Positions 217 through 18,844 of a stretch of DNA of 19,097 nt are shown piece by piece. Positions within the stretch are counted from its first letter, which is position 1. Every line of letters begins with the position of its first letter. This DNA comes from Clostridia bacterium (GTDB taxonomy: Bacteria > Bacillota > Clostridia > Oscillospirales > CAG-272), in contig JAFTKY010000092.1 of assembly GCA_017453005.1 (NCBI GenBank), positions 1-19,097 of the forward strand, in the 5' to 3' direction. The notes beneath the pieces are model-generated. The model did no database searches, had not been told where the DNA came from, and saw nothing but the letters and a program-made list of their open reading frames with translations. The position numbers and the translations under genes were made by a program.

Positions 217-245
217 TTGACAAACGTGGGATATGGTGCTAAACT
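217..245 (+). promoter_or_regulatory. Sigma-A-type promoter of the aromatic amino acid operon.
   Basis: TTGACA at 217-222, a 17-nt spacer, then TAAACT at 240-245 preceded by TGc (extended -10 like). It is the only good promoter upstream of the leader and the DAHP synthase gene. Confidence 0.55.
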
Positions 246-276
246 ATTGATATAAAGAAGGAAAGTGAGACTTGAT

Positions 277-333
277 ATGCACAGCTCTATATTCACATTT
301 GCATATTATTACTTTTACTATTTTATGGACTGA
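277..333 (+). CDS. Candidate 18-aa leader peptide MHSSIFTFAYYYFYYFMD, rich in Tyr and Phe (attenuation leader).
   Basis: ATG at 277 is preceded by GAAGGAAAGTGAG (257-269). The codons are CAC AGC TCT ATA TTC ACA TTT GCA TAT TAT TAC TTT TAC TAT TTT ATG GAC TGA. Ten of 18 codons are Tyr or Phe. It lies between the promoter and a terminator hairpin, upstream of genes for Phe/Tyr biosynthesis. It is too short to appear in the six-frame ORF track. Confidence 0.5.
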   Translation: MHSSIFTFAYYYFYYFMD

Positions 334-392
334 TAATAGTAAAGGTGATTTTTGCTGCGTGAATTGCATACCGAGATTATATGATCTTAAAC

Positions 393-434
393 GGTACTTC
401 ACAGTAAAGTCGCTGTGGAGTACCCTTTTATTTT
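393..434 (+). terminator. Intrinsic terminator-like hairpin in the operon leader (attenuator).
   Basis: Stem GGTACTTCACAG (393-404) pairs with CTGTGGAGTACC (413-424), 12 bp with one G-U wobble. The loop is TAAAGTCG. It is followed by TTTTATTTTCATTT at 426-439. It sits 60 nt downstream of the leader-peptide stop and 65 nt upstream of the aroG-type start. Confidence 0.6.
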
Positions 435-498
435 CATTTGCTTTCCTCCCCCGCGACGCATATACGCACTTTATATATAAATGAAAGGAAACCACATC

Positions 499-1497
499 AT
501 GATTGCAGTACTTAAGAACGGAACAAGTCAAAAGCAAATTGACAGCCTTATAAATTGGATAGAGTCTCAGGGACTCTCCGTCCACCTTTCCGCAGGTGAA
601 TATCAGACCATCGTAGGTCTTATCGGTGACACGACGAAAATCGACGAGGACCTTCTCCGGAGCCTTGATATAGTTGAGACGGTAAAGCGAATTTCCGAGC
701 CCTTCAAGAGCGCGAACAGAAAATTCCACCCCGACAACACTGTCGTCAAGGTCGAGGACACAAGCGTTGGCGGCAACATATTCGCTGTCATGGCAGGCCC
801 CTGCTCGGTTGAGAGCCGCCAACAGGTTGTTGAGATAGCAAAGGCAGTCAAGGCGGCAGGTGCGACAATGCTCCGCGGCGGCGCATTCAAGCCCAGAACC
901 TCGCCCTACGATTTCCAGGGACTTAAGGCAGAGGGTATAGAGTACCTTCTCGAAGCAAAAAAGGTAACGGGACTTCCCATCGTCACCGAAATAATGAACG
1001 CCGCACATCTTCCCATGTTTGAGGAGGTCGACGTCATTCAGGTTGGCGCGAGAAATATGCAGAACTTTGAGCTGCTCAAGGAGCTTGGCAGAACGAAAAA
1101 GCCCATACTTCTCAAGCGCGGACTTTCGTCCACTATCAAGGAATGGCTCATGTCCGCAGAGTACATAATGGCAGGCGGCAACGAGAATATCATCCTCTGC
1201 GAGCGCGGAATACGCTCGTTTGATTCGCAATACACGCGCAACGTGCTTGACTTGTCCGCTATCCCCGTACTCCACGAGCTGACACACCTCCCCGTTATCG
1301 TTGACCCAAGCCACGCGACGGGTGCGTCGAGACTTGTCAAGCCCATGGCTATGGCAGCGGCGGCTTGCGGCGCGGACGGACTTATGATAGAGGTCCACAA
1401 CAACCCCAAGGCAGCGCTTTGCGACGGCCCGCAGTCTCTCACACCCGAGCAGTTTGCGGACGTAATGGGCGCGGTAAAGCCCTTGATACTTAAATAA
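499..1497 (+). CDS. aroG: 3-deoxy-7-phosphoheptulonate (DAHP) synthase, type I-beta, with an N-terminal ferredoxin-like/ACT-like regulatory domain.
   Basis: The C-terminal roughly 250 aa has DAHPS/KDO8PS-family motifs (GPCSVES, KPRTSPY, the GxR metal/PEP-binding region). An N-terminal roughly 80-aa extension resembles the Thermotoga-type regulatory domain. The start is chosen at ATG 499, which has AAAGGAAA 9 nt upstream; the ORF-track start at 481 lacks a ribosome-binding site. Confidence 0.9.
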   Translation: MIAVLKNGTSQKQIDSLINWIESQGLSVHLSAGEYQTIVGLIGDTTKIDEDLLRSLDIVETVKRISEPFKSANRKFHPDNTVVKVEDTSVGGNIFAVMAGPCSVESRQQVVEIAKAVKAAGATMLRGGAFKPRTSPYDFQGLKAEGIEYLLEAKKVTGLPIVTEIMNAAHLPMFEEVDVIQVGARNMQNFELLKELGRTKKPILLKRGLSSTIKEWLMSAEYIMAGGNENIILCERGIRSFDSQYTRNVLDLSAIPVLHELTHLPVIVDPSHATGASRLVKPMAMAAAACGADGLMIEVHNNPKAALCDGPQSLTPEQFADVMGAVKPLILK

Positions 1498-1529
1498 AAT
1501 TTGCCCTCACGGGCAGTTTGGAGCTATTT

Positions 1530-2378
1530 ATGAAAATAGGAATTGTCGGTCTCGGTCTTATCGGCGGCTCTATGGCGAAGGCTTACAGAGCATACTCCGA
1601 CGAGCATGACTGTGACTTTAAAATATACGCTTACAACAGAAGCCGCGCTATTCTTGATTTTTCCATACTTTCGGGCGTGGTTGACGGCGAGCTGAATAAT
1701 GAGACTATACCCGAATGTGATATAATTTTCGTCAGTCTCTATCCCGAGGCGTCCATTGAATATATGGTAAGGAACGCCCCCCTGTTCGCAGAAAAGACCG
1801 TGGTTATGGACCTTTGCGGAACAAAGCGCGAGATATGCCGCGTGGGCTTTGAGCTTGCAGAGCAGCATAATTTCACCTTTATAGGCGGTCATCCCATGGC
1901 AGGCACTCACAACTCGGGCTATAAATATTCAAAGGCGACTATGTTCCGTGGTGCGCCTATGGTGATCGTGCCTCCCGTATTTGACGATATACGTCTGCTT
2001 GACAATATCAAAAAGCTGCTCCTGCCCGCGGGCTTTGGCAGATTTTCAGTCACGAATGCGGACGATCACGACAGAATAATTGCCTTTACCTCGCAGCTTG
2101 CTCACGTAGTCTCAAACGCGTACGTCAAGAGCCCCACGGCAACCGTACACAAGGGCTTTTCGGCGGGAAGCTACAAGGACATGACGAGAGTTGCGTGGCT
2201 GAATGAGGTCATGTGGACGGAGCTTTTCTTTGAAAACAAGGAGCCTCTTCTCTTTGAGCTTGACAGCATTATAAATTCCCTTTCCGAGTACAGAGACGCG
2301 CTCGCGGACGGTGACAAGGAAAAAATGAAAAACCTTTTGCGTGACGGAAGGCTTGCAAAGGAACAGATAGACGGCTAA
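1530..2378 (+). CDS. tyrA: Prephenate dehydrogenase (possibly arogenate dehydrogenase).
   Basis: N-terminal Rossmann motif IGIVGLGLIGGS, with overall TyrA-family architecture. GGAG lies 7 nt before ATG 1530. The start at 1518 is less likely. Confidence 0.85.
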   Translation: MKIGIVGLGLIGGSMAKAYRAYSDEHDCDFKIYAYNRSRAILDFSILSGVVDGELNNETIPECDIIFVSLYPEASIEYMVRNAPLFAEKTVVMDLCGTKREICRVGFELAEQHNFTFIGGHPMAGTHNSGYKYSKATMFRGAPMVIVPPVFDDIRLLDNIKKLLLPAGFGRFSVTNADDHDRIIAFTSQLAHVVSNAYVKSPTATVHKGFSAGSYKDMTRVAWLNEVMWTELFFENKEPLLFELDSIINSLSEYRDALADGDKEKMKNLLRDGRLAKEQIDG

Positions 2379-2395
2379 AAAAGGAATAGTTAAAA

Positions 2396-3445
2396 ATGAG
2401 AAAACTGACAGTCAGTGCCTCGCGCACGTACGATATAATAATAGGAAGCGACCTGCTTGACTCCGCGGGTGCGCTGTCGGCAAAGGTAATATCTCCTTGC
2501 CGCACAGTCATCATCAGCGACGATACGGTAGCGGCTCTATACTCGGAAAGACTTATAGTCTCGCTGAAGGCGGCGGGCTATACCCCCGAGCTTTTCATCA
2601 TTCCTCACGGCGAGGAATCCAAGTCCGCAGAAAGCTATATAAGGATACTCAACTTCTTGGCAGATATGCAGCTTTCCCGCTCGGACTGTATCTTTGCTCT
2701 CGGCGGCGGTGTCGTCGGCGACCTTGCGGGCTTTGTTGCGACGACTTATCTGCGCGGTATTCGCTTTATACAGATACCTACAACTCTGCTCTCCATGGTG
2801 GACTCGTCGGTGGGCGGCAAGACCGCGATAAATCTCGGTGCGGGCAAAAATCTTGCGGGTGCGTTTTATCAGCCCTCGCTCGTTATCTGCGACTATTCAA
2901 CGCTCGCTACTCTGCCCGACGAAACATTCTCCGACGGTTGCGCCGAGGTCATAAAATACGGCATTATAAACGACAAGCCGCTTTTTGAGAAGCTCAAAAA
3001 TCCCATCCTGCCTCAAATTGAGGATATAATTGAGAACTGCGTTCGCAACAAGCGTGATATAGTCAACAAGGACGAGCGAGACAACGGTGTCCGTCAGCTT
3101 CTCAACCTCGGTCACACGGCAGGACACGCCGTTGAGAAATGCTCGGATTTTGAAATTTCACACGGCAGTGCCGTCGCGATAGGCACGGTGCTTATCACTC
3201 GCGCGGCGGCATCACTCGGCTACTGCACGGCAGACGACGTACAACAGACCGAAGAAATATTCAAAGCATATAACCTCCCGACAAAATGCCCCTTTGACGC
3301 GAAGTCACTCGCAAGTGTAGCGCAGGGAGACAAAAAGCGCGCGGGCGCAAAAATAAACCTCGTAATTCCCTTTGGTATCGGCAGTTGCAAGCTCGTTCCC
3401 ACACCTGTTGAGGAGCTTGAAGCAATATTTTCCAAGGGACTTTGA
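2396..3445 (+). CDS. aroB: 3-dehydroquinate synthase.
   Basis: A 349-aa protein with DHQS-family motifs: GGGVVGDLAGF, a metal-binding HGxxVA region and a GK.N..GAFYQP motif. Confidence 0.9.
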   Translation: MRKLTVSASRTYDIIIGSDLLDSAGALSAKVISPCRTVIISDDTVAALYSERLIVSLKAAGYTPELFIIPHGEESKSAESYIRILNFLADMQLSRSDCIFALGGGVVGDLAGFVATTYLRGIRFIQIPTTLLSMVDSSVGGKTAINLGAGKNLAGAFYQPSLVICDYSTLATLPDETFSDGCAEVIKYGIINDKPLFEKLKNPILPQIEDIIENCVRNKRDIVNKDERDNGVRQLLNLGHTAGHAVEKCSDFEISHGSAVAIGTVLITRAAASLGYCTADDVQQTEEIFKAYNLPTKCPFDAKSLASVAQGDKKRAGAKINLVIPFGIGSCKLVPTPVEELEAIFSKGL

Positions 3446-3460
3446 TTTGGAGCTATAAAC

Positions 3461-4735
3461 ATGAATTACACATTTACGGCAAAAAATACGAAAAACAAAA
3501 TAAACGCGATATCCTCAAAATCCGAGGCGCACAGACTTCTTATCTGTGCCGCTCTCTCGGACGGGGAGACCTGCATTGTTTGTAACGATACAAATCAGGA
3601 TATAGACGCGACCGTCAGCTGTCTCAACGCGCTTGGCGCGTCCATTATCCGCGCAGAGAACGGAGACGGAGAAAAATACTTTAACGTCACACCTATCAGC
3701 GAGATACCCACGCATGCGGCGTTTGACTGCGGCGAGTCGGGCTCTACTCTGCGCTTTCTGTTGCCCGTGGTTGCCGCCCTCGGTATTGAATGCGACATTT
3801 ATATGCACGGGCGTCTTCCCGAGCGTCCCCTCTCTCCTCTTTACGAGCTGCTCACAGAAAACGGAGTGACGCTCTCCCCCCAAGGCTCAAACCCGTTGCA
3901 CGTCAGCGGAAGGCTCAAATCGGGAAATTACGAGATAGCGGGAAATATATCCTCGCAGTTTATAAGCGGTCTTCTCTTTGCTCTGCCCTTTGCGGACGGT
4001 GACAGCACGCTCACCATGACGGGCAAGCTTGAGTCCACCCCGTACATAACCATGACCGAGCAGGCACTTGAGTGCTTTGAAGCTCATATCCGCAACGACG
4101 GTAACGTGTTTTACATTCCAAGGGCGAACAGCTGTGTGGGACTTAACCGTTTTACCACTCCCCACACCGTTTTCGTGGGCGGCGACTGGTCAAACGCGGC
4201 ATTCTTTCTCTGCGCGGGCGCGCTGTCCAAGGGCGGCGTGACCGTGTGCGGGCTTGACGTCACCTCCCCGCAGGGTGACCGCGAGATACTCAACATCTTA
4301 AAGCGCATGGGCGCGGCAATATCCCGCTCCGGCAACTCAATAACGGTCAGCAAGGCAGACCTTTTCGGCATTGAGATAGACGCCTCGCAGATACCCGACC
4401 TCGTTCCCGTCATCTCGGTGGTAGCGTCGGTCGCTATGGGCAAAACCAGAATTTATAACGCCTCCCGTCTCCGCCTCAAGGAGAGCGACAGACTAAGGAG
4501 CGTTTGCGATATGCTCTCGTCCCTCGGCGCGGACATAAAGGAGACCGAGGACGGACTTATCATCCACGGCATAAATAAAAAGCTTACGGGCGGTACCGTC
4601 AGCTCGCACAACGACCACAGAATTGCAATGAGCGCGGCGGTTGCCTCTCTCGTTTGCACGGGTCCCGTAACGGTCGAGGGCATCGAGGCGGTCAATAAGT
4701 CATATCCCTCGTTCATTTCCGATTTTGTAATTTGA
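3461..4735 (+). CDS. aroA: 3-phosphoshikimate 1-carboxyvinyltransferase (EPSP synthase).
   Basis: A 424-aa protein with the EPSPS fold signature, including LFLGNAGTA-like GESGSTLRFL, the RPLSPL region and a C-terminal DHRIAMS motif. Confidence 0.9.
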   Translation: MNYTFTAKNTKNKINAISSKSEAHRLLICAALSDGETCIVCNDTNQDIDATVSCLNALGASIIRAENGDGEKYFNVTPISEIPTHAAFDCGESGSTLRFLLPVVAALGIECDIYMHGRLPERPLSPLYELLTENGVTLSPQGSNPLHVSGRLKSGNYEIAGNISSQFISGLLFALPFADGDSTLTMTGKLESTPYITMTEQALECFEAHIRNDGNVFYIPRANSCVGLNRFTTPHTVFVGGDWSNAAFFLCAGALSKGGVTVCGLDVTSPQGDREILNILKRMGAAISRSGNSITVSKADLFGIEIDASQIPDLVPVISVVASVAMGKTRIYNASRLRLKESDRLRSVCDMLSSLGADIKETEDGLIIHGINKKLTGGTVSSHNDHRIAMSAAVASLVCTGPVTVEGIEAVNKSYPSFISDFVI

Positions 4736-4745
4736 GGTTAAACAA

Positions 4746-5819
4746 ATGACTACCTACGGAAAAAACATAAAGCTTACTATATACGGCGGCTCGCACGACG
4801 AACATATCGGAATGATACTTTCGGGTGTGCCGTCGGGCATAAACATTGATACGGACAAGCTCCTCGCTTTTATGAAGCGCCGCGCCCCCGGGCAGAACGC
4901 GTATTCAACAAAACGCCGCGAGCCCGATATCCCCGTATTTTTGTCGGGTATCGTAGACGGCGTGACAAACGGCGAGGACATTGAGGCTGTCATTTATAAC
5001 ACCAATCACCGCTCGGGCGACTACTCCTCGCTCTGGGATATTCCCCGTCCGTCCCACGCGGACTATACCGCGCGGATAAAGTACGGCGAGGGTGTTGACC
5101 TTCGCGGCGGCGGACATTTCTCGGGCAGGCTTACCGCTCCCATGTGCATCGCGGGCGGCATTTGTCTCCAGATGCTTGAGCAAAAGGGTATTTTCGTCGC
5201 GGCACATATTCACTCTGTTGCAGGTATCAAGGACGCGGAGTTTGACAGCGTAAACGTCTGCCTTGACGATTTCAAGTCACTTGCAAAAAGAGACTTCCCC
5301 ACTATTGACGAGGCGGCAGGTGTCGCCATGCAGGAAGAGATAGAAAGAGCGCGGCTTGACTGCGACTCCGTCGGCGGCGTTATCGAGTGCGCGGCTATCG
5401 GTCTCCCCGTGGGACTTGGCGAGCATATGTTTGACGGCGTTGAGGGCAGAATTTCGGGTATTATGTTCGGTATTCCCGCAGTCAAGGGTGTTGAATTCGG
5501 TCTGGGCTTTGGCTCTGCTGCCCTTCGCGGCTCGCAGAACAACGATTCCTTCTGCACCGACGGCAAAACAATAAAGACAGTCACCAACAACTGCGGCGGA
5601 ATCCTCGGCGGCATGACTGACGGTATGCCTCTTATTTTCCGCGCGGCGTTCAAGCCCACCCCGTCCATTTCAAAAGTACAGCAGAGCGTGTCTCTCTCCC
5701 GAATGGAAAACGTACAGCTTGAAATAGGCGGCAGACACGACCCCTGCGTCGTCCCCCGCGCCGTCCCGGTAGTTGAGGCGGCGTGCGCCATCGCGCTTTG
5801 CGATATGCTTCAAGACTAA
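4746..5819 (+). CDS. aroC: Chorismate synthase.
   Basis: A 357-aa protein with chorismate synthase signatures: GESHG-like YGGSHDEH, the RRAPGQN..S.RRE region and an RHDPCVVPRAVPV C-terminal motif. Confidence 0.92.
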   Translation: MTTYGKNIKLTIYGGSHDEHIGMILSGVPSGINIDTDKLLAFMKRRAPGQNAYSTKRREPDIPVFLSGIVDGVTNGEDIEAVIYNTNHRSGDYSSLWDIPRPSHADYTARIKYGEGVDLRGGGHFSGRLTAPMCIAGGICLQMLEQKGIFVAAHIHSVAGIKDAEFDSVNVCLDDFKSLAKRDFPTIDEAAGVAMQEEIERARLDCDSVGGVIECAAIGLPVGLGEHMFDGVEGRISGIMFGIPAVKGVEFGLGFGSAALRGSQNNDSFCTDGKTIKTVTNNCGGILGGMTDGMPLIFRAAFKPTPSISKVQQSVSLSRMENVQLEIGGRHDPCVVPRAVPVVEAACAIALCDMLQD

Positions 5820-5836
5820 ACTCAAAGGATAAAACA

Positions 5837-6985
5837 ATGGAACTTGATCTGAATAAAATCCGAGAAGAAATAAACGCGACGGACAAAGAGATCGTGGAGC
5901 TGTTCAAGCAGCGCATGAATCTTGCGGCATCCGTTGCGGAATATAAAAAGCAGCACAATCTCCCCGTACTTGACGCGGCGCGCGAGCGCGCTCTGCTCGC
6001 TAAAATTGCGGACATGGCAGGCGAGGAATTTGAAAAATACGCGCTTATTCTCTACCACACGATGATGGACGTATCAAAGTCCTATCAGCACACAAAGCTC
6101 ACCCCCGAGTCGCAGATGTATAACGGCATACAAGCCTCTCTTGACAGAACGCAAAAGGTATTCCCCAAGAAAGCCAAGGTTGCGTGTCAGGGCGTTGAGG
6201 GCGCGTACTCGCAGATAGCGGCAGGAAGATTTTTTGAGCTTCCCGCGATAAATTATTACCCCTCGTTTGACGCCGTATTTTCGGCAATCGAGCGAGGTGA
6301 GTGTCGCTACGGCGTGCTTCCCATTGAGAACAGTACGGCAGGCTCGGTCAAAAAGGTTTACGAGCTTATGATACGCCACAATTTCAATATCGTAAAATCT
6401 CTGCGCCTCAAAATCGACCACAATCTGCTCGTCAGACGCGGCGTAAAGCTTGAAAGCATCAAGGAAATCGTCTCTCACGAGCAGGCAATAAATCAATGCT
6501 CGGGATTTCTCGGCATGCTTGAGGGCGTCAAGATAACGGTCTGTGAAAATACGGCTGTGGCGGCAAAAATGGTCGCGCAGTCCGAAAGAGACGATATCGC
6601 GGCTCTGTCCTCGCGCGACTGCGCCGAGCTTTACGGACTTGAAAATATTGCTCCCGCCGTTCAGGACATGGGCAACAACTACACGAGATTTATCTGCATT
6701 TCCAAGGAGCCCGAGATTTATCCCGGCGCCGACAAATGCTCTATAATGCTCGTCACGGCAAACCGTCCCGGTATGCTTTATAACGTGCTTTCCTGCTTCA
6801 ACGCGCTTGGTATCAATATGACCAAGCTCGAGTCCACGCCCATTCCCGAGCGTGACTTTGAGTCTATGTTCTACTTTGATTTCTCGGTGTCCGTCTACTC
6901 CGACGACCTAAAGCAGCTCCTTTGCGAGCTTGAGGCACGAAGCGAGCGCTTCCGTTTCCTCGGCGCGTATTCCGAAATACTCTGA
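5837..6985 (+). CDS. pheA: Bifunctional chorismate mutase / prephenate dehydratase (P-protein) with a C-terminal ACT domain.
   Basis: The N-terminal roughly 90 aa is an AroQ-class chorismate mutase helix bundle. It is followed by a prephenate dehydratase domain and an ACT domain with an ESTP-like LESTPIPER motif. AAAGGA precedes ATG 5837. The 5783 start would overlap the aroC end and lacks a ribosome-binding site. Confidence 0.88.
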   Translation: MELDLNKIREEINATDKEIVELFKQRMNLAASVAEYKKQHNLPVLDAARERALLAKIADMAGEEFEKYALILYHTMMDVSKSYQHTKLTPESQMYNGIQASLDRTQKVFPKKAKVACQGVEGAYSQIAAGRFFELPAINYYPSFDAVFSAIERGECRYGVLPIENSTAGSVKKVYELMIRHNFNIVKSLRLKIDHNLLVRRGVKLESIKEIVSHEQAINQCSGFLGMLEGVKITVCENTAVAAKMVAQSERDDIAALSSRDCAELYGLENIAPAVQDMGNNYTRFICISKEPEIYPGADKCSIMLVTANRPGMLYNVLSCFNALGINMTKLESTPIPERDFESMFYFDFSVSVYSDDLKQLLCELEARSERFRFLGAYSEIL

Positions 6986-7001
6986 TAACCGAGGCAAGAC
7001 T

Positions 7002-8249
7002 ATGATAACAAACAGAAAAGAACAGGTCTGCGGACTTGTGGGCGAGCGGCTCGGACACAGCTTTTCCCCACAGATACACGCGTGTCTGTGCGACTACTCA
7101 TATTCGCTTTTTGAGATGCCCGAAAGTGAGCTTGAGGGCTTTATCAAGGGCGACGGATACCACTCCGTAAACGTGACTATTCCCTACAAGATGGCGGTCA
7201 TGCCTTATCTTGACGTCATTTCCGAGGCGGCGCAGAAAATCGGCTCGGTCAATACCGTCACACACCTGCCCGACGGCAGGCTGTACGGCGACAACACCGA
7301 CTTTTACGGCTTTATCCATATGATAAAGAGCGCAGGTCTTGATTTGTCGGGCAAGAGCGTGCTTATACTCGGCACGGGCGGTACGTCACGGACGGCAACG
7401 GCGGCTTGTGAGGCTTTGGGTGCGAAAAGCATAAGGCTCGTCTCTCGCAAAGGCGACTTGACCTACGGCAACGCACATACACTCTGCCCCGAGACGCAGA
7501 TAATAATCAACTGCACGCCCGTCGGAATGTACCCCGGCAACCTCGTCTCCCCGATAGATATTCAAAAATTCCCCGCGCTTGAGGGCGTAGCGGACGTTAT
7601 ATTCAACCCCGCAAAAACGCAGCTTTTACTTGATGCGGAAGGGCTGGGGCTGAAAACAGCTAACGGACTTCCCATGCTCGTCGCGCAGGCAAAGCGCGCT
7701 TGCGAGATATTCACGGGCGAGGACATACCCAACAGCGAAATTGACCGTATCACTCGCATAATCGCGGGGCAAACTACGAATATAGTCCTTGTCGGTATGC
7801 CCGGCTGCGGCAAGACCACGGTTGGAAAAATACTTGCGGAGCGTCTCGGTCGCGAGCTTGTTGACACGGACGAGCTTGTAGTGGAGCTTGCGGGCAAGTC
7901 AATTCCCGAAATCTTTGCCGAGCAGGGCGAGGAGGGCTTCCGCGCGATAGAACACACGGCGGTATGCATGGCGGGCAAGAAAAGCGGCGTCATAATTGCC
8001 ACGGGCGGCGGTGCTGTCACACGCCCCGAGAACTACGCTCCCCTGCACCAAAACGGAAAAATTGTTTTTATAACGAGAGACATATCACTTCTGGCAAAGG
8101 ACGGCAGACCGCTCTCGCTCTCGGGCGACCTTCGTGCCATGTACGAAAAAAGACTTCCCTCATACAGAGAATTTTGCGACATCGAGGCGGCAAACACCAC
8201 GCCGCACGAGACGGCAGAACAAATAATAAAAATATTTTTGGAGGACTGA
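7002..8249 (+). CDS. aroE-aroK: Fused shikimate dehydrogenase (N-terminal, about 265 aa) and shikimate kinase (C-terminal, about 150 aa).
   Basis: The N-terminal domain has AroE-like substrate and NADP motifs (VTIPYK, GDNTD, GTGGTSR). The C-terminal domain has the shikimate kinase Walker A GMPGCGKTTVGK followed by a DTD motif. The frame is continuous with no stop between the domains. GAGG lies 7 nt before ATG 7002. Confidence 0.85.
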   Translation: MITNRKEQVCGLVGERLGHSFSPQIHACLCDYSYSLFEMPESELEGFIKGDGYHSVNVTIPYKMAVMPYLDVISEAAQKIGSVNTVTHLPDGRLYGDNTDFYGFIHMIKSAGLDLSGKSVLILGTGGTSRTATAACEALGAKSIRLVSRKGDLTYGNAHTLCPETQIIINCTPVGMYPGNLVSPIDIQKFPALEGVADVIFNPAKTQLLLDAEGLGLKTANGLPMLVAQAKRACEIFTGEDIPNSEIDRITRIIAGQTTNIVLVGMPGCGKTTVGKILAERLGRELVDTDELVVELAGKSIPEIFAEQGEEGFRAIEHTAVCMAGKKSGVIIATGGGAVTRPENYAPLHQNGKIVFITRDISLLAKDGRPLSLSGDLRAMYEKRLPSYREFCDIEAANTTPHETAEQIIKIFLED

Positions 8250-8252
8250 CAA

Positions 8253-8687
8253 ATGAAGCTTCTTATCATCAACGGCCCGAACATCAACCTTCTGGGACTT
8301 CGCGAGCCCGCCATCTACGGCTCGCAGAATTACTCCGCCCTTTGCACGCTCGTCAAAAAGACCTGTGCCGAGCTTGATATTGAGTGCGAGCTGTTTCAGT
8401 CCAACCACGAGGGCGCGATAGTTGACAAGATCCAGGACGCATACGGTGTCTTTGACGGAATAGTCATAAACCCCGCGGCATACACGCACACCTCCATAGC
8501 GATACTCGACGCGCTCAAGGCGGTGTCTATCCCCACAGTCGAAATTCACATCTCCGACGTGTCCAAGCGCGAGGACTTCCGCCAGATATCCTACGTCTCA
8601 AAGGTAGCAGTCAAGACCTTCATGGGACTTGGCATCGAGGGATATAAGCATGCGATTGAGTATCTTAATGAGTTTTTGAATAAATAA
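8253..8687 (+). CDS. aroQ: Type II 3-dehydroquinate dehydratase.
   Basis: A 144-aa protein with the LNGPN.N.LG.REP..YG N-terminal signature and the H..D motif of type II dehydroquinase. Confidence 0.9.
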   Translation: MKLLIINGPNINLLGLREPAIYGSQNYSALCTLVKKTCAELDIECELFQSNHEGAIVDKIQDAYGVFDGIVINPAAYTHTSIAILDALKAVSIPTVEIHISDVSKREDFRQISYVSKVAVKTFMGLGIEGYKHAIEYLNEFLNK

Positions 8688-8735
8688 AGATAAAGTTTTA
8701 TCCTTCTTCAACCAAGAAGGTTGAACAACATCATA

Positions 8736-8790
8736 GCCTTCCCCAAGCAGGGGAAGGTGGCACGAGCCTGCGAGTGACGGATGAGGATGC
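8736..8790 (+). repeat. Inverted, degenerate copy of a GC-rich hairpin module (CCTTCCCC-aagca-GGGGAAGG ... GGATGAGGATG).
   Basis: An 8-bp perfect hairpin at 8737-8757. The 8779-8789 GGATGAGGATG segment is the reverse complement of 8834-8844. Together with 8831-8883 it forms a roughly 150-bp quasi-palindrome around an AT-rich 44-nt centre. Confidence 0.55.
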
Positions 8791-8830
8791 CAATAACAGT
8801 AAATATATTATAATACGCTGTCTGCTTCAG

Positions 8831-8892
8831 CAACATCCTCATCCACCGCTAACGCGGTCCCCCTTCCCCCACTTGGGGAAGGCTTTTTTGTT
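8831..8892 (+). terminator. Repeat module copy 1, ending in the intrinsic terminator of the aro operon.
   Basis: AACATCCTCATCCACCGCTAACGCGGTCCCCCTTCCCC-cactt-GGGGAAGG, followed by CTTTTTTGTTG. It has a small hairpin ACCGC/GCGGT and an 8-bp GC hairpin (8862-8882) followed by a T-tract. It is about 92 percent identical to the module at 13695-13745. Confidence 0.7.
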
Positions 8893-8961
8893 GAATGAAT
8901 ACAAAACGCGAAATCAAAATCTATGCAAAACAGAGAAACTAAAAAAATCGCGTCTCCACTC

Positions 8962-8990
8962 TTGACGGTCAAGTGACCGTGTGATATAAT
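8962..8990 (+). promoter_or_regulatory. Sigma-A promoter of the MerR-like gene, with a 16-bp perfect palindrome (ACGGTCA-ag-TGACCGT, 8965-8980) in the spacer.
   Basis: TTGACG at 8962-8967, a 17-nt spacer, then TATAAT at 8985-8990 with TGa extended -10. The palindrome overlaps the -35 element and the spacer. Confidence 0.55.
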
Positions 8991-9015
8991 ATTAGTGAGA
9001 TCAGGAGGTGAGAAA

Positions 9016-16569: not shown

Positions 16570-17634
16570 TTAACGCAACGCCGCAGGCATATTCTCAAGC
16601 ATATTCTCAATAAATATCCCGTAGCCGACGGTGGGGTCATTTATCATAACGTGCGTCACCGCACCCACGAGCTTGCCATTCTGGATTATGGGGCTGCCGC
16701 TCATTCCCTGCACTATTCCGCCGGTTTTGTCGATAAGCTTTTGGTCCTTGACCGTGACCGTAAAGCATTTTGAGCCGCATTCGTCGTACTTTACAGATGA
16801 TATCTCGATATTGTACCTACACGCACCGTTGCCGTCAAGCGTACATATTATATACGCCGCTCCGCTCTTGACCTCACTCTTAAGTCCCACGGGGATGGGC
16901 TTGCCTACGCCCTCGGGACATTTTAAAAACATTCCGTACACGCCGCAGTCGGTGTTGCCAACGAGAGACCCAAGCTTATTCGTGCCGATAATGCCCTTTA
17001 TCTCACCCGGCACACCCGCAACTCCCTTTTTTACACCGCTGACCGTAACGTCCGAAACGACGCCGCGCGTCATTTTTATGAGCTTTCCGCTGTCCGCGCT
17101 GCATATTCCGTGTCCAAGTCCCGCAAACGAGTACGTTTCGGGATCAATATAGGTAACCGTTCCTATTCCCGCGCCGCTGTCACGTACGCAGAGCCCCGCC
17201 ATATATTTTCCCTCGCTGACTGAATATTTCGGAGAAAGCCTGAGACTTTTTTCCGCGCCCGCTCGGGTGAACGTAACGGCTATGCTCTTGCCCGACGAGC
17301 TGTCTATCAACGATATAAAATCGCTTGTGTCCCTCGGCTCATGCCCGTCAATTTTCGTGATAATATCCCCCGTCCTCAGTCCCGCTTGAGATGCAGGGCA
17401 GATATTTCCGTCCTTCGTGTCCACATCGCAAAATCCCACGACCACAATTCCCGCCATGCTGAATTTTACCCCGAAGGGTATTCCCCCGGGGATGAGCTTT
17501 AGTCCCGCGTATTTATTTTGAGACCTTGACGTTGCGCCGACGGTAACTCCCATACACACCGAAAGCGCAAAAACCAGACACAAAAACAGACATATCGCGG
17601 AGGCTGCAAAATGTTTGTTTTTATTTTTTATCAT
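16570..17634 (-). CDS. spoIVB: Stage IV sporulation protein B (SpoIVB, S55 serine peptidase) with a PDZ domain.
   Basis: N-terminal signal/TM, a PDZ-like region (GLRTGDIITKIDGHEP) and the catalytic GMSGSP serine motif with the conserved His region. AAGGA ribosome-binding site before the ATG at 17632-17634 (minus strand). Confidence 0.8.
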   Translation of the reverse strand: MIKNKNKHFAASAICLFLCLVFALSVCMGVTVGATSRSQNKYAGLKLIPGGIPFGVKFSMAGIVVVGFCDVDTKDGNICPASQAGLRTGDIITKIDGHEPRDTSDFISLIDSSSGKSIAVTFTRAGAEKSLRLSPKYSVSEGKYMAGLCVRDSGAGIGTVTYIDPETYSFAGLGHGICSADSGKLIKMTRGVVSDVTVSGVKKGVAGVPGEIKGIIGTNKLGSLVGNTDCGVYGMFLKCPEGVGKPIPVGLKSEVKSGAAYIICTLDGNGACRYNIEISSVKYDECGSKCFTVTVKDQKLIDKTGGIVQGMSGSPIIQNGKLVGAVTHVMINDPTVGYGIFIENMLENMPAALR

Positions 17635-18745: not shown

Positions 18746-18836
18746 TGGAGATGTACTCAAGAGGCCGAAGAGGCGCCCCTGCTAAGGGTGTAGGTCGGGT
18801 TACCGGCGCGAGAGTTCAAATCTCTCCATCTCCGCC
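18746..18836 (+). tRNA. tRNA-Ser (anticodon GCU), class II with a long variable arm.
   Basis: Acceptor GGAGATG pairs with CATCTCC. U8; D-arm CTC/AAGAGGCCGAA/GAG; anticodon stem CGCCC/GGGTG with loop CTGCTAA (anticodon GCT at 18780-18782); a 19-nt variable arm; T-arm GAGAG/TTCAAAT/CTCTC; discriminator G plus encoded CCA. It closely parallels bacterial tRNA-Ser(GCU). Confidence 0.85.
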
Positions 18837-18844
18837 AACAAAAA

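Follow-up and report, generated by a model that had tools for sequence, protein, structure and literature searches.

The window analysed here (the whole stretch of 19,097 nucleotides (nt) of contig JAFTKY010000092.1 from a Clostridia bacterium, GenBank assembly GCA_017453005.1) carries eight consecutive genes for the synthesis of aromatic amino acids, aroF-tyrA-aroB-aroA-aroC-pheA-aroEK-aroQ, and upstream of aroF a leader region, in which a promoter is followed by a small open reading frame (ORF) rich in Tyr and Phe codons and by an intrinsic terminator. This leader, proposed in an initial annotation as a candidate ribosome-mediated attenuator, is the subject of the present analysis. The positions of its elements and of the genes identified by Pfam are summarized in Table 1. 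The DAHP synthase, tyrA and pheA genes, which the initial annotation had placed immediately behind the leader, were all identified by Pfam within the eight-gene run. The genes from aroF to aroQ are tightly packed or overlap each other, the longest reading of pheA (from 5783) overlapping aroC and the longest reading of aroE-aroK overlapping the end of pheA, and are presumably co-transcribed. The start codon of aroF is most likely ATG 499, preceded by AAAGGAAA. After aroF, the first terminator-like site (8862-8892) and the first promoter (8962-8990) come only beyond aroQ, and thus the leader precedes the whole common aromatic pathway and, in addition, both the Tyr and the Phe branches.

Organization of the leader region

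The promoter at the head of the leader, already recognized in the initial annotation, was confirmed, the consensus being matched at 10 of 12 positions, and carries in addition an extended -10 TG (TGcTAAACT, 237-245). Judging from its position, transcription would start near 252. The 18-codon ORF and its four Phe codons (TTC, TTT, TTT and TTT) stand as annotated, but the Tyr codons number five (TAT, TAT, TAC, TAC and TAT) instead of six. Two extra Phe codons, at 292-294 and 298-300, precede the uninterrupted run. With respect to the ribosome-binding site, AAGGA is present, but its distance of 14 nt to the leader ATG is rather long; GUGAG is located nearer but is weaker. The hairpin with a U-tract starting at 393 was confirmed as well, and its stem was counted as 13 pairs, including 6 G-C, with a loop of 6 nt, followed by CTTTTATTTT. 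The energy of this terminator hairpin is -20.9 kcal/mol. The fold energy of the leader as a whole (250-440) is -57.6, as compared with -34.3 +/- 4.0 for shuffled sequences (z = -5.8).

Table 1. Features of the aro leader and the downstream genes in the window
Feature	Position	Strand	Description
Promoter, sigma-70-type	217-245	+	-35 TTGACA 217-222, 17-nt spacer, -10 TAAACT 240-245
Candidate ribosome-binding region	258-269	+	AAGGA 258-262; GUGAG 265-269
Segment 1	276-303	+	5' strand of P1 (anti-antiterminator); pairs 276-281:365-370, 291-296:359-364, 301-303:353-355
Leader ORF	277-333	+	18 codons + stop; ATG 277, TGA 331-333; product MHSSIFTFAYYYFYYFMD
Regulatory codon run	304-324	+	Y Y Y F Y Y F, 7 consecutive Tyr/Phe codons
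P2	308-349	+	Y/F codons 308-322 with 335-349, then U349-U353; -13.2 kcal/mol
Segment 2	350-373	+	switch strand UUUUGCUGCGUGAAUUGCAUACCG; conserved core AUUUUUGCUGC; pairs with segment 1 or with terminator arm + loop
Intrinsic terminator	393-434	+	segment 3 393-405, loop 406-411, segment 4 412-424, T-tract 425-434
Antiterminator 3' strand	394-409	+	overlaps terminator
Putative operon	499-8687	+	aroF-tyrA-aroB-aroA-aroC-pheA-aroEK-aroQ, eight consecutive genes by Pfam
aroF	499-1497	+	DAHP synthase with N-terminal FXD domain (Pfam)
tyrA	1518-2378	+	prephenate dehydrogenase (Pfam)
aroB	2396-3445	+	dehydroquinate synthase (Pfam)
aroA	3461-4735	+	EPSP synthase (Pfam)
aroC	4746-5819	+	chorismate synthase (Pfam)
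pheA	within 5783-6985	+	chorismate mutase-prephenate dehydratase-ACT (CM-PDT-ACT) (Pfam)
aroE-aroK fusion	within 6930-8249	+	shikimate dehydrogenase-shikimate kinase (Pfam)
aroQ	8253-8687	+	type II dehydroquinase (Pfam)

Conservation of the small ORF

The leader was compared with the upstream regions of 80 aroF loci, one genome per species, with AroF identities of 64-87%, of which 79 carried enough upstream sequence. The nearest AroF relatives belong to Oscillospiraceae and 'Eubacteriales' genomes. The same layout, consisting of a Shine-Dalgarno (SD) sequence, ATG, a run of Tyr and Phe (Y/F) codons, a terminator and aroF, was identified in 67 of the 79 loci, and four more carry weaker variants (~67-71/79). 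Candidate carriers available in culture include Sporobacter termitidis DSM 10068 (L029), Angelakisella massiliensis (L062), Hominicoprocola fusiformis (L015) and Pseudoflavonifractor sp. AF19-9AC (L042). In the 67 loci, the small Y/F ORF sits 100-250 nt upstream of aroF; the terminator, with energies of -8 to -31 kcal/mol, is located 14-73 nt past the leader stop codon, and aroF another 7-136 nt beyond.

A total of 64 distinct leader peptides, 17-47 amino acids in length (median 21), were identified, among which conservation is limited to the Y/F run and the residues that segment 1 encodes; the flanks and the length drift. On average, a related leader contains 4.1 Tyr and 4.7 Phe, and essentially no Trp, and both synonymous codons are in use for each amino acid (TAT 113, TAC 150, TTT 255 and TTC 47). 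The comparison of orthologous loci, suggested together with the initial annotation, thus turned out in its favour, the small ORF and its aromatic codons being kept in ~67-71 of the 79 loci while synonymous codons drift; the run itself is conserved in 52-71 of the 79. A window of seven codons with at least six F/Y/W was found on the sense strand in 52 of the 79 upstream regions but on the antisense strand in only two, and elsewhere in the same loci such windows occur six times in about 0.97 Mb, both strands included (0.0025 per 400 nt). An in-frame ATG without intervening stop codon precedes the run in 65 of the 67 loci in the Y/F frame, in contrast to 10 and 6 loci in the other two frames, and an ATG with SD in 55 of the 67, in contrast to 3 and 1. 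This bias indicates that the reading frame itself is maintained, and not merely a U/A-rich sequence. The SD spacing among the relatives is mostly 8-11 nt, and the length of the leader upstream of the run changes in whole codons only.

Inspection of the 12 relatives without an obvious leader revealed the four variant leaders and one aroF located within an operon behind pheA; the rest showed no recognisable element, and a Rfam scan of the 12 detected neither a T-box nor any other element. The four weaker variants include GC-rich, Tyr-dominated peptides such as MSSSRFGYYYYYVLCSLCRA. Three GC-richer loci, L022 (2848-2922), L057 (2866-2928) and L060 (1483-1551), carry Tyr-dominated leaders with RYAYYYVLY, GYYYYYVL and DYYYALY, respectively, ending with ...CRA or ...GRA. 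In these leaders, GCAGGGCG codons are complementary to the 5' arm of the terminator (CGCCCUGC), and all three stay below the threshold of the covariance model R1 (see below); they resemble a sub-family whose segment 2 differs. The AT-rich locus L066 (~2880-2960) has no leader, and tandem CTTAAAA(G/C)-like units (AAAGCTTTAAAGCTTAAAACCTTAAAAGCTTAAAATCGCTAAAC) are located between a promoter-like site and aroF, an array that may represent a protein-binding repeat.

Alternative RNA pairings

The alignment of the 64 leaders gave the consensus ATG..TTTGCAGCTGnATA-TTTTTACTTTTACTTTT..AAAGTAAnAGTGATTTTTGCTGCAnA..CGCAGTnAAA..CTGCGG..T-tract, in which segment 2 is separated from the 5' arm of the terminator by 26-70 nt. 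In the helix designated P1, segment 1 (UUUGCAGC, the F-A-A codons just 5' of the run) pairs with segment 2 (GCUGCAAA), and in P2, the Y/F run (UUACUUUUACU) pairs with AGUAAnAGUGA (the downstream AAAGUAAnAGU stretch). The terminator is formed between segment 3 and segment 4. In the antiterminator, segment 2 and its U-run (UUUUGCUG) pair with CAGUnAAA, consisting of the inner part of the terminator 5' arm and the unusually conserved terminator loop GUGAAA, which is complementary to segment 2.

When positions 250-440 of the window are folded, P1, P2 and the terminator all appear in the minimum-energy structure. For the RNA of 340-411, the part that would be exposed with a ribosome on the run and segment 4 not yet made, the minimum-energy fold is the antiterminator (350-356:403-409, 359-363:398-402 and 365-367:394-396; -14.5 kcal/mol). 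The mutually exclusive structures for which a folding check had been proposed thus exist in the window, and they are conserved in the family. The antiterminator of the initial annotation, 355-373 (CTGCGTGAATTGCATACCG) with 392-404 (CGGTACTTCACAG), can pair as written, but its extent had to be revised; the family-conserved helix starts 5 nt further 5', is larger and reaches the terminator loop.

The pairings were examined on a sequence-only MAFFT alignment of the 64 leaders, using slid partners and shuffled sequences as controls. Because P1 and P2 are broken up by indels in the raw alignment, RNAalifold recovered the terminator alone there; these two helices were written by hand, tested, and then re-tested on a model-based alignment (see below). 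On the MAFFT alignment, the fraction of paired bases was 73% for P1, 85% for P2, 90% for the terminator and 83% for the whole structure, as compared with 36-49% for slid partners, and the double-change cells of the three helices amounted to 212, against 71 +/- 9 in shuffles. For the antiterminator, the respective values were 78% against 36-56%, and 27 double-change cells against 12.8 +/- 3.3. On the two alignments, P1 was 73-82% paired, with compensatory changes, P2 85-86%, and the terminator 90-95%, with compensatory changes at all 10 pairs.

Co-evolution was also estimated independently of any alignment, by comparison of the duplex energy of segments from the same locus with that of segments swapped between loci. 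The same-locus duplexes were more stable for the terminator (-20.9 versus -7.9), the antiterminator (-14.2 versus -10.9) and P1 (-18.4 versus -14.5), with p<=2e-4 in each case, while three pairings outside the model showed no difference between same-locus and swapped energies. An initial test of the antiterminator, using the terminator 5' arm alone and dinucleotide shuffles of the whole spacer, gave a weak result (mean z = -0.6). The signal became clear after segment 3 was redefined as arm plus loop and swapped-locus controls were used, since the antiterminator helix also uses the terminator loop.

The arrangement of the ORF relative to these helices is also maintained. Across the family, the Y/F run starts a median of 5 nt 3' of segment 1, and therefore a ribosome that halts at the first hungry codon would cover segment 1. 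The distance from the stop codon to the start of segment 2 ranges from -20 to +51 nt (-18 in the window), and accordingly a ribosome finishing the peptide would abut or cover segment 2.

Distribution of the leader family and the genes behind it

A covariance model, R1, was built from 53 leaders of other species, with the window and its nearest relative left out, and encodes P1, P2 and the terminator only. In the 19 kb of the window, the single R1 match covers 280-431 (model positions 1-148) and scores 86.6 bits, with E 3.6e-16. Another 63 genome loci each gave one match, always on the sense strand upstream of aroF. On the R1-based alignment, which leans towards the modelled structure, this structure was 88% paired. 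The antiterminator, absent from R1, was 81% paired, as compared with 33-60% for slid partners, and showed 19 double-change cells against 7.9 +/- 2.7.

By scanning metagenomes with the 21-nt conserved core, 120 matching stretches were obtained, yielding 80 loci (L081-L160). All 80 carry a Y/F-run ORF directly upstream together with a full-length R1 match. One variant, MVTMNSS(V/A)(R/S)FSFYYYYFFTRKK, makes up about half of these 80 matches, on human-gut contigs, pointing to a single carrier species of high abundance in samples from the human gut. The gene located 3' of the leader in the 80 contigs is aroF in about 74, tyrA in two and an ABC substrate-binding protein in one; 11 downstream genes had first been called 'other', and eight of these turned out by blastx to be aroF with frame or start problems. 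Throughout, the element lies 7-136 nt upstream of an aromatic-pathway gene in the same orientation, and in most loci this gene has no separate promoter. Among the loci examined, the link of the leader to aromatic metabolism was exclusive.

The two leaders located directly before tyrA, in L103 (80-209) and L124 (1658-1787), have a run of six Tyr and one Phe (MTNLFATNSYYYYYYFNN, MTKSFVAISYYYYYYFEN; …SYYYYYYFNN). This composition suggests that the mixture of codons is adapted to the gene under control, the two loci being close relatives and effectively one case. In L108 (4439-4567, minus strand of the stored locus), the leader MTMIRRSYYYGYYFWMQE, with Tyr, Phe and one Trp, precedes the gene for an ABC substrate-binding protein (PF04392), which is followed by a second, unannotated ORF of 314 amino acids; the two genes possibly serve the uptake of aromatic amino acids and would be controlled in the same way. 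In L117, a gene for PaaK-like phenylacetate-CoA ligase was not counted as a regulated target, being located 288 nt past a complete leader and terminator and behind its own likely promoter (TTGACA..TACAAT); the leader itself (3312-3451, minus strand of the stored locus) may have been orphaned or displaced by a rearrangement.

Proposed mode of regulation and alternatives

The leader thus combines a short ORF with SD, start and stop codons, a run of codons for the pathway products, an intrinsic terminator, a 2:3 antiterminator and a 1:2 anti-antiterminator. From these sequence features, the element is in all likelihood (a probability of roughly 0.85) a classic ribosome-mediated, leader-peptide-dependent transcription attenuator that senses charged tRNA-Tyr and tRNA-Phe. 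The E. coli pheA/trp-type architecture of the initial annotation holds, and the addition of the anti-antiterminator and of the Y/F-codon hairpin completes the four-segment design.

In the proposed mechanism, RNA polymerase would start near 252, synthesize the leader and probably pause after P2 and the U-run (308-353), while a ribosome would initiate at AUG 277. When Tyr-tRNA or Phe-tRNA is scarce, the ribosome would stall on the run (304-324), cover segment 1 and melt P2; segment 2 (350-373) could then bind the 5' arm and loop of the terminator (394-409) as these leave the polymerase. The antiterminator thus formed would block the hairpin 393-424, and transcription would continue into aroF-tyrA-aroB-aroA-aroC-pheA-aroEK-aroQ. 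With an ample supply of Tyr and Phe, the ribosome would reach the stop codon at 331, beside segment 2, and leave; segment 2 would then be masked, or segment 1 would capture it again in P1, allowing the terminator to form and transcription to end near 430-435. If the leader were not translated at all, P1, P2 and the terminator would likewise form. P2 with its five U's may act as a pause hairpin for the polymerase, melted by the incoming ribosome, much as the 1:2 hairpin of trp causes a pause and as NusG-dependent pauses occur in the leader-peptide systems of B. subtilis (PMC6851288). Coupling between translation and transcription, and a response to amino-acid supply, are presumed in this scheme.

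In Firmicutes, aromatic operons are usually controlled by T-box, TRAP or other protein-mediated attenuation, and on this general ground the switch between P1, P2, antiterminator and terminator might be operated by an RNA-binding protein, a tRNA or a small ligand, the UAC/UUU repeats serving as a binding site and the ORF being incidental. The Y/F codons also lie within the conserved helix P2 and are thus under constraint at the nucleotide level. A search of the window against Rfam 15 gave no match at the gathering score, however, and cmscan of 100-600 at E<=10 gave six chance-level matches to unrelated families (BSnc120, MIR4376, RUF4, Termite-leu and others). Within the same range and limit, no leader family of Rfam (Phe_leader, Trp_leader, leu/phe-leader and others) was matched. 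The T-box model (RF00230) found no match at either the gathering score or E<=10, and the T-box core GGUGGNACC is absent from the window leader. Thus, no known riboswitch covers the region, in agreement with the initial annotation, which had noted the lack of a T-box consensus and proposed this covariance search. A TRAP-binding array would consist of 9-11 (G/U)AG triplets, 2-3 nt apart, but 246-498 contains only four scattered triplets, the longest chain being one. Further observations also speak against a switch operated without the ribosome: SD, ATG and open frame are kept specifically in the Y/F frame (65/67 versus 10 and 6), the leader 5' of the run varies in whole codons only, the stop codon always lies near or beyond segment 2, and the amino-acid identity of the run follows the downstream gene, Tyr dominating before tyrA. 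This explanation is therefore considered improbable.

The far higher stability of the terminator than of the antiterminator, together with the moderate covariation support of the latter, would also suit a terminator or pause that acts constitutively and leaks in part, or an RNA-stability element, whose read-through is tuned by the small ORF without sensing of amino acids. Such an element leaves unexplained the seven-codon Tyr/Phe runs across 64 different peptides, the conservation of the loop GUGAAA complementary to segment 2, and the higher complementarity of segments 2 and 3 from the same locus than of swapped ones, and it appears even less probable. Small hydrophobic peptides are common, and with its start, stop and terminator the ORF might encode a functional hydrophobic micropeptide, the hairpin being merely its own terminator. 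The conservation of only the aromatic run and the segment-1-encoded residues in peptides of 17-47 amino acids, the constant position 7-136 nt upstream and in the orientation of an aromatic-pathway gene mostly lacking its own promoter, and the conservation of the alternative RNA pairings all speak against a micropeptide, and this interpretation is regarded as the least probable.

Several points weigh against the ribosome-mediated attenuator. The SD of the window leader is poorly spaced (14 nt), and many of the compared loci come from related metagenome-assembled genomes, so that the counts do not represent independent events. The antiterminator is the weakest link; it is supported mostly by conserved complementary sequence, and less strongly than the other helices. 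Its covariation score on the R1 alignment was not clearly above that of shuffles (53/500 reach the score). In the window, the antiterminator is less stable than the terminator (-14.5 versus -20.9 kcal/mol), and the switch must therefore be kinetic. In addition, the polymerase of Bacillus subtilis is known to outrun the ribosomes ('runaway transcription'; PMC13323073), which would make coupling-dependent attenuation difficult unless a pause, such as that presumed at P2, synchronises polymerase and ribosome.

Comparison with known attenuation systems

The leaders of Escherichia coli pheL-pheA, pheM-pheST and trpL likewise contain a short ORF with a run of end-product codons, and share with the Clostridia leader the four segments, the 1:2, 2:3 and 3:4 helices and an intrinsic terminator ahead of the first gene for biosynthesis (PMC3082878, PMC11802643). 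They differ, apart from the host, a Clostridium versus a gamma-proteobacterium, in that no sequence or covariance-model similarity is detected (no Rfam family match). The Clostridia family, with Tyr and Phe codons in roughly equal numbers, would sense two amino acids and not Phe alone, and the window leader, unlike that of pheL-pheA, precedes the whole common pathway and both branches (8 genes). Moreover, unlike in pheL and trpL, the regulatory codons form a hairpin of their own (P2) and the terminator loop takes part in the antiterminator.

The closest functional analogue is aroR of Corynebacterium glutamicum, also a Phe/Tyr leader before a DAHP synthase operon. As far as described in the accounts citing Neshat et al. 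2014, the Phe-Tyr-Phe leader precedes aroF, and stalling under Phe limitation, and not Tyr limitation, raises transcription (PMC4046766, PMC11802643). This leader is actinobacterial, unrelated in sequence, and has three regulatory codons, as compared with at least seven in the Clostridia family. In Acholeplasma, a Bacillota-related lineage, the predicted Phe ORF uORFC-13-1 is likewise located before aroF, just upstream of an intrinsic terminator, and ribosome-mediated attenuation was proposed (Brewer et al. 2021, PMC8632094). Its 24 representatives are from Acholeplasma and environmental sequences only, with a U-run coding for 'at least one' Phe (PMC8632094), and it is set apart by this description, in which no Tyr/Phe alternation appears; the motif was not among the Rfam matches of the window. 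Attenuators with his leaders have been predicted in the Bacillus cereus group, Peptostreptococcaceae and Erysipelotrichales, with 5-6 species per group (PMC9413887). They show the same in-silico design of leader peptide, terminator and antiterminator, in operons without T-box or repressor control, but concern another amino acid and operon, while the Y/F family occurs in ~70 species-level genomes. The view in the initial annotation that such a leader is unusual for Firmicutes is therefore only partly correct, predicted leader-peptide attenuators being known for his (PMC9413887) and for Acholeplasma aroF (PMC8632094).

In Bacillus subtilis, the antibiotic-sensing leader peptides of bmrB-bmrCD and yxjB also act by ribosome-mediated transcription attenuation (PMC4191407, PMC6851288), and for yxjB a NusG-dependent pause synchronises the polymerase with the ribosome (PMC6851288). 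There, the ribosome is stalled by antibiotics and not by amino-acid supply, and a run of pathway-product codons is absent. T-box and TRAP systems follow the same logic, monitoring tRNA charging or amino-acid level, and give the same output, terminator versus antiterminator; the difference is that the sensor proposed for the Clostridia family is the translating ribosome.

The mechanism itself is therefore not new, but the leaders form a new, well-populated family (~70 species-level genomes) of a known kind of regulator. In the literature searched, no description of a Y/F leader of Oscillospiraceae-type Clostridia was found, although older comparative-genomics surveys may list it. The chances seem evenly balanced that this is an undescribed, widespread family of dual Tyr/Phe attenuators representing the main transcriptional control of aromatic synthesis in Oscillospiraceae-type Clostridia of gut and rumen, with occasional extension to tyrA-first operons and an ABC transporter. 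Such a family would explain how the costly shikimate, Tyr and Phe pathways are controlled in these abundant, mostly uncultured bacteria, whose operons concerned carry no T-box or other catalogued RNA element, T-boxes having been expected in the lineage. Few amino-acid leader attenuators are on record outside Proteobacteria and Actinobacteria; the family, about 150 nt in length, adds to them and is a candidate for Rfam and for small-ORF annotation, the ORFs of 17-47 codons now being missed or misread as hypothetical micropeptides. Since the mechanism needs a ribosome acting on the nascent transcript, the family also offers a natural test of coupled or pause-synchronised translation and transcription in Clostridia. 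If the proposal is correct, ribosomes in this Firmicute lineage would trail the polymerase closely enough for coupling-dependent attenuation, probably aided by the pause at the Y/F-codon hairpin plus U-run, in contrast to the 'runaway transcription' of Bacillus subtilis. The mixed Tyr/Phe run further raises the question of whether a shortage of either amino acid alone de-attenuates the operon.

Other features of the window

Beyond aroQ, a gap of 307 nt (8688-8994) contains the terminator-like hairpin (8862-8882) followed by a T-run, and the strong promoter-like site at 8962-8990 precedes a MerR/DUF1836 gene. A gene for SpoIVB peptidase is located at 16570-17634, indicating that the host is a spore-forming Firmicute, and a tRNA-Ser(GCT) gene at 18747-18837. 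At the other end, the window opens inside a minus-strand tRNA gene; the reverse complement of 1-41, GGGCCATTAGCTCAGTTGGTTAGAGCTACCGGCTCATAACC, represents the 5' half of this gene, whose anticodon is CAT (Met or Ile2 type), and was missed by ARAGORN because of the truncation. A perfect minus-strand promoter, TTGACA-17-TATAAT (104-76), is directed at this truncated tRNA gene, with a short hairpin and T-runs at 40-69.

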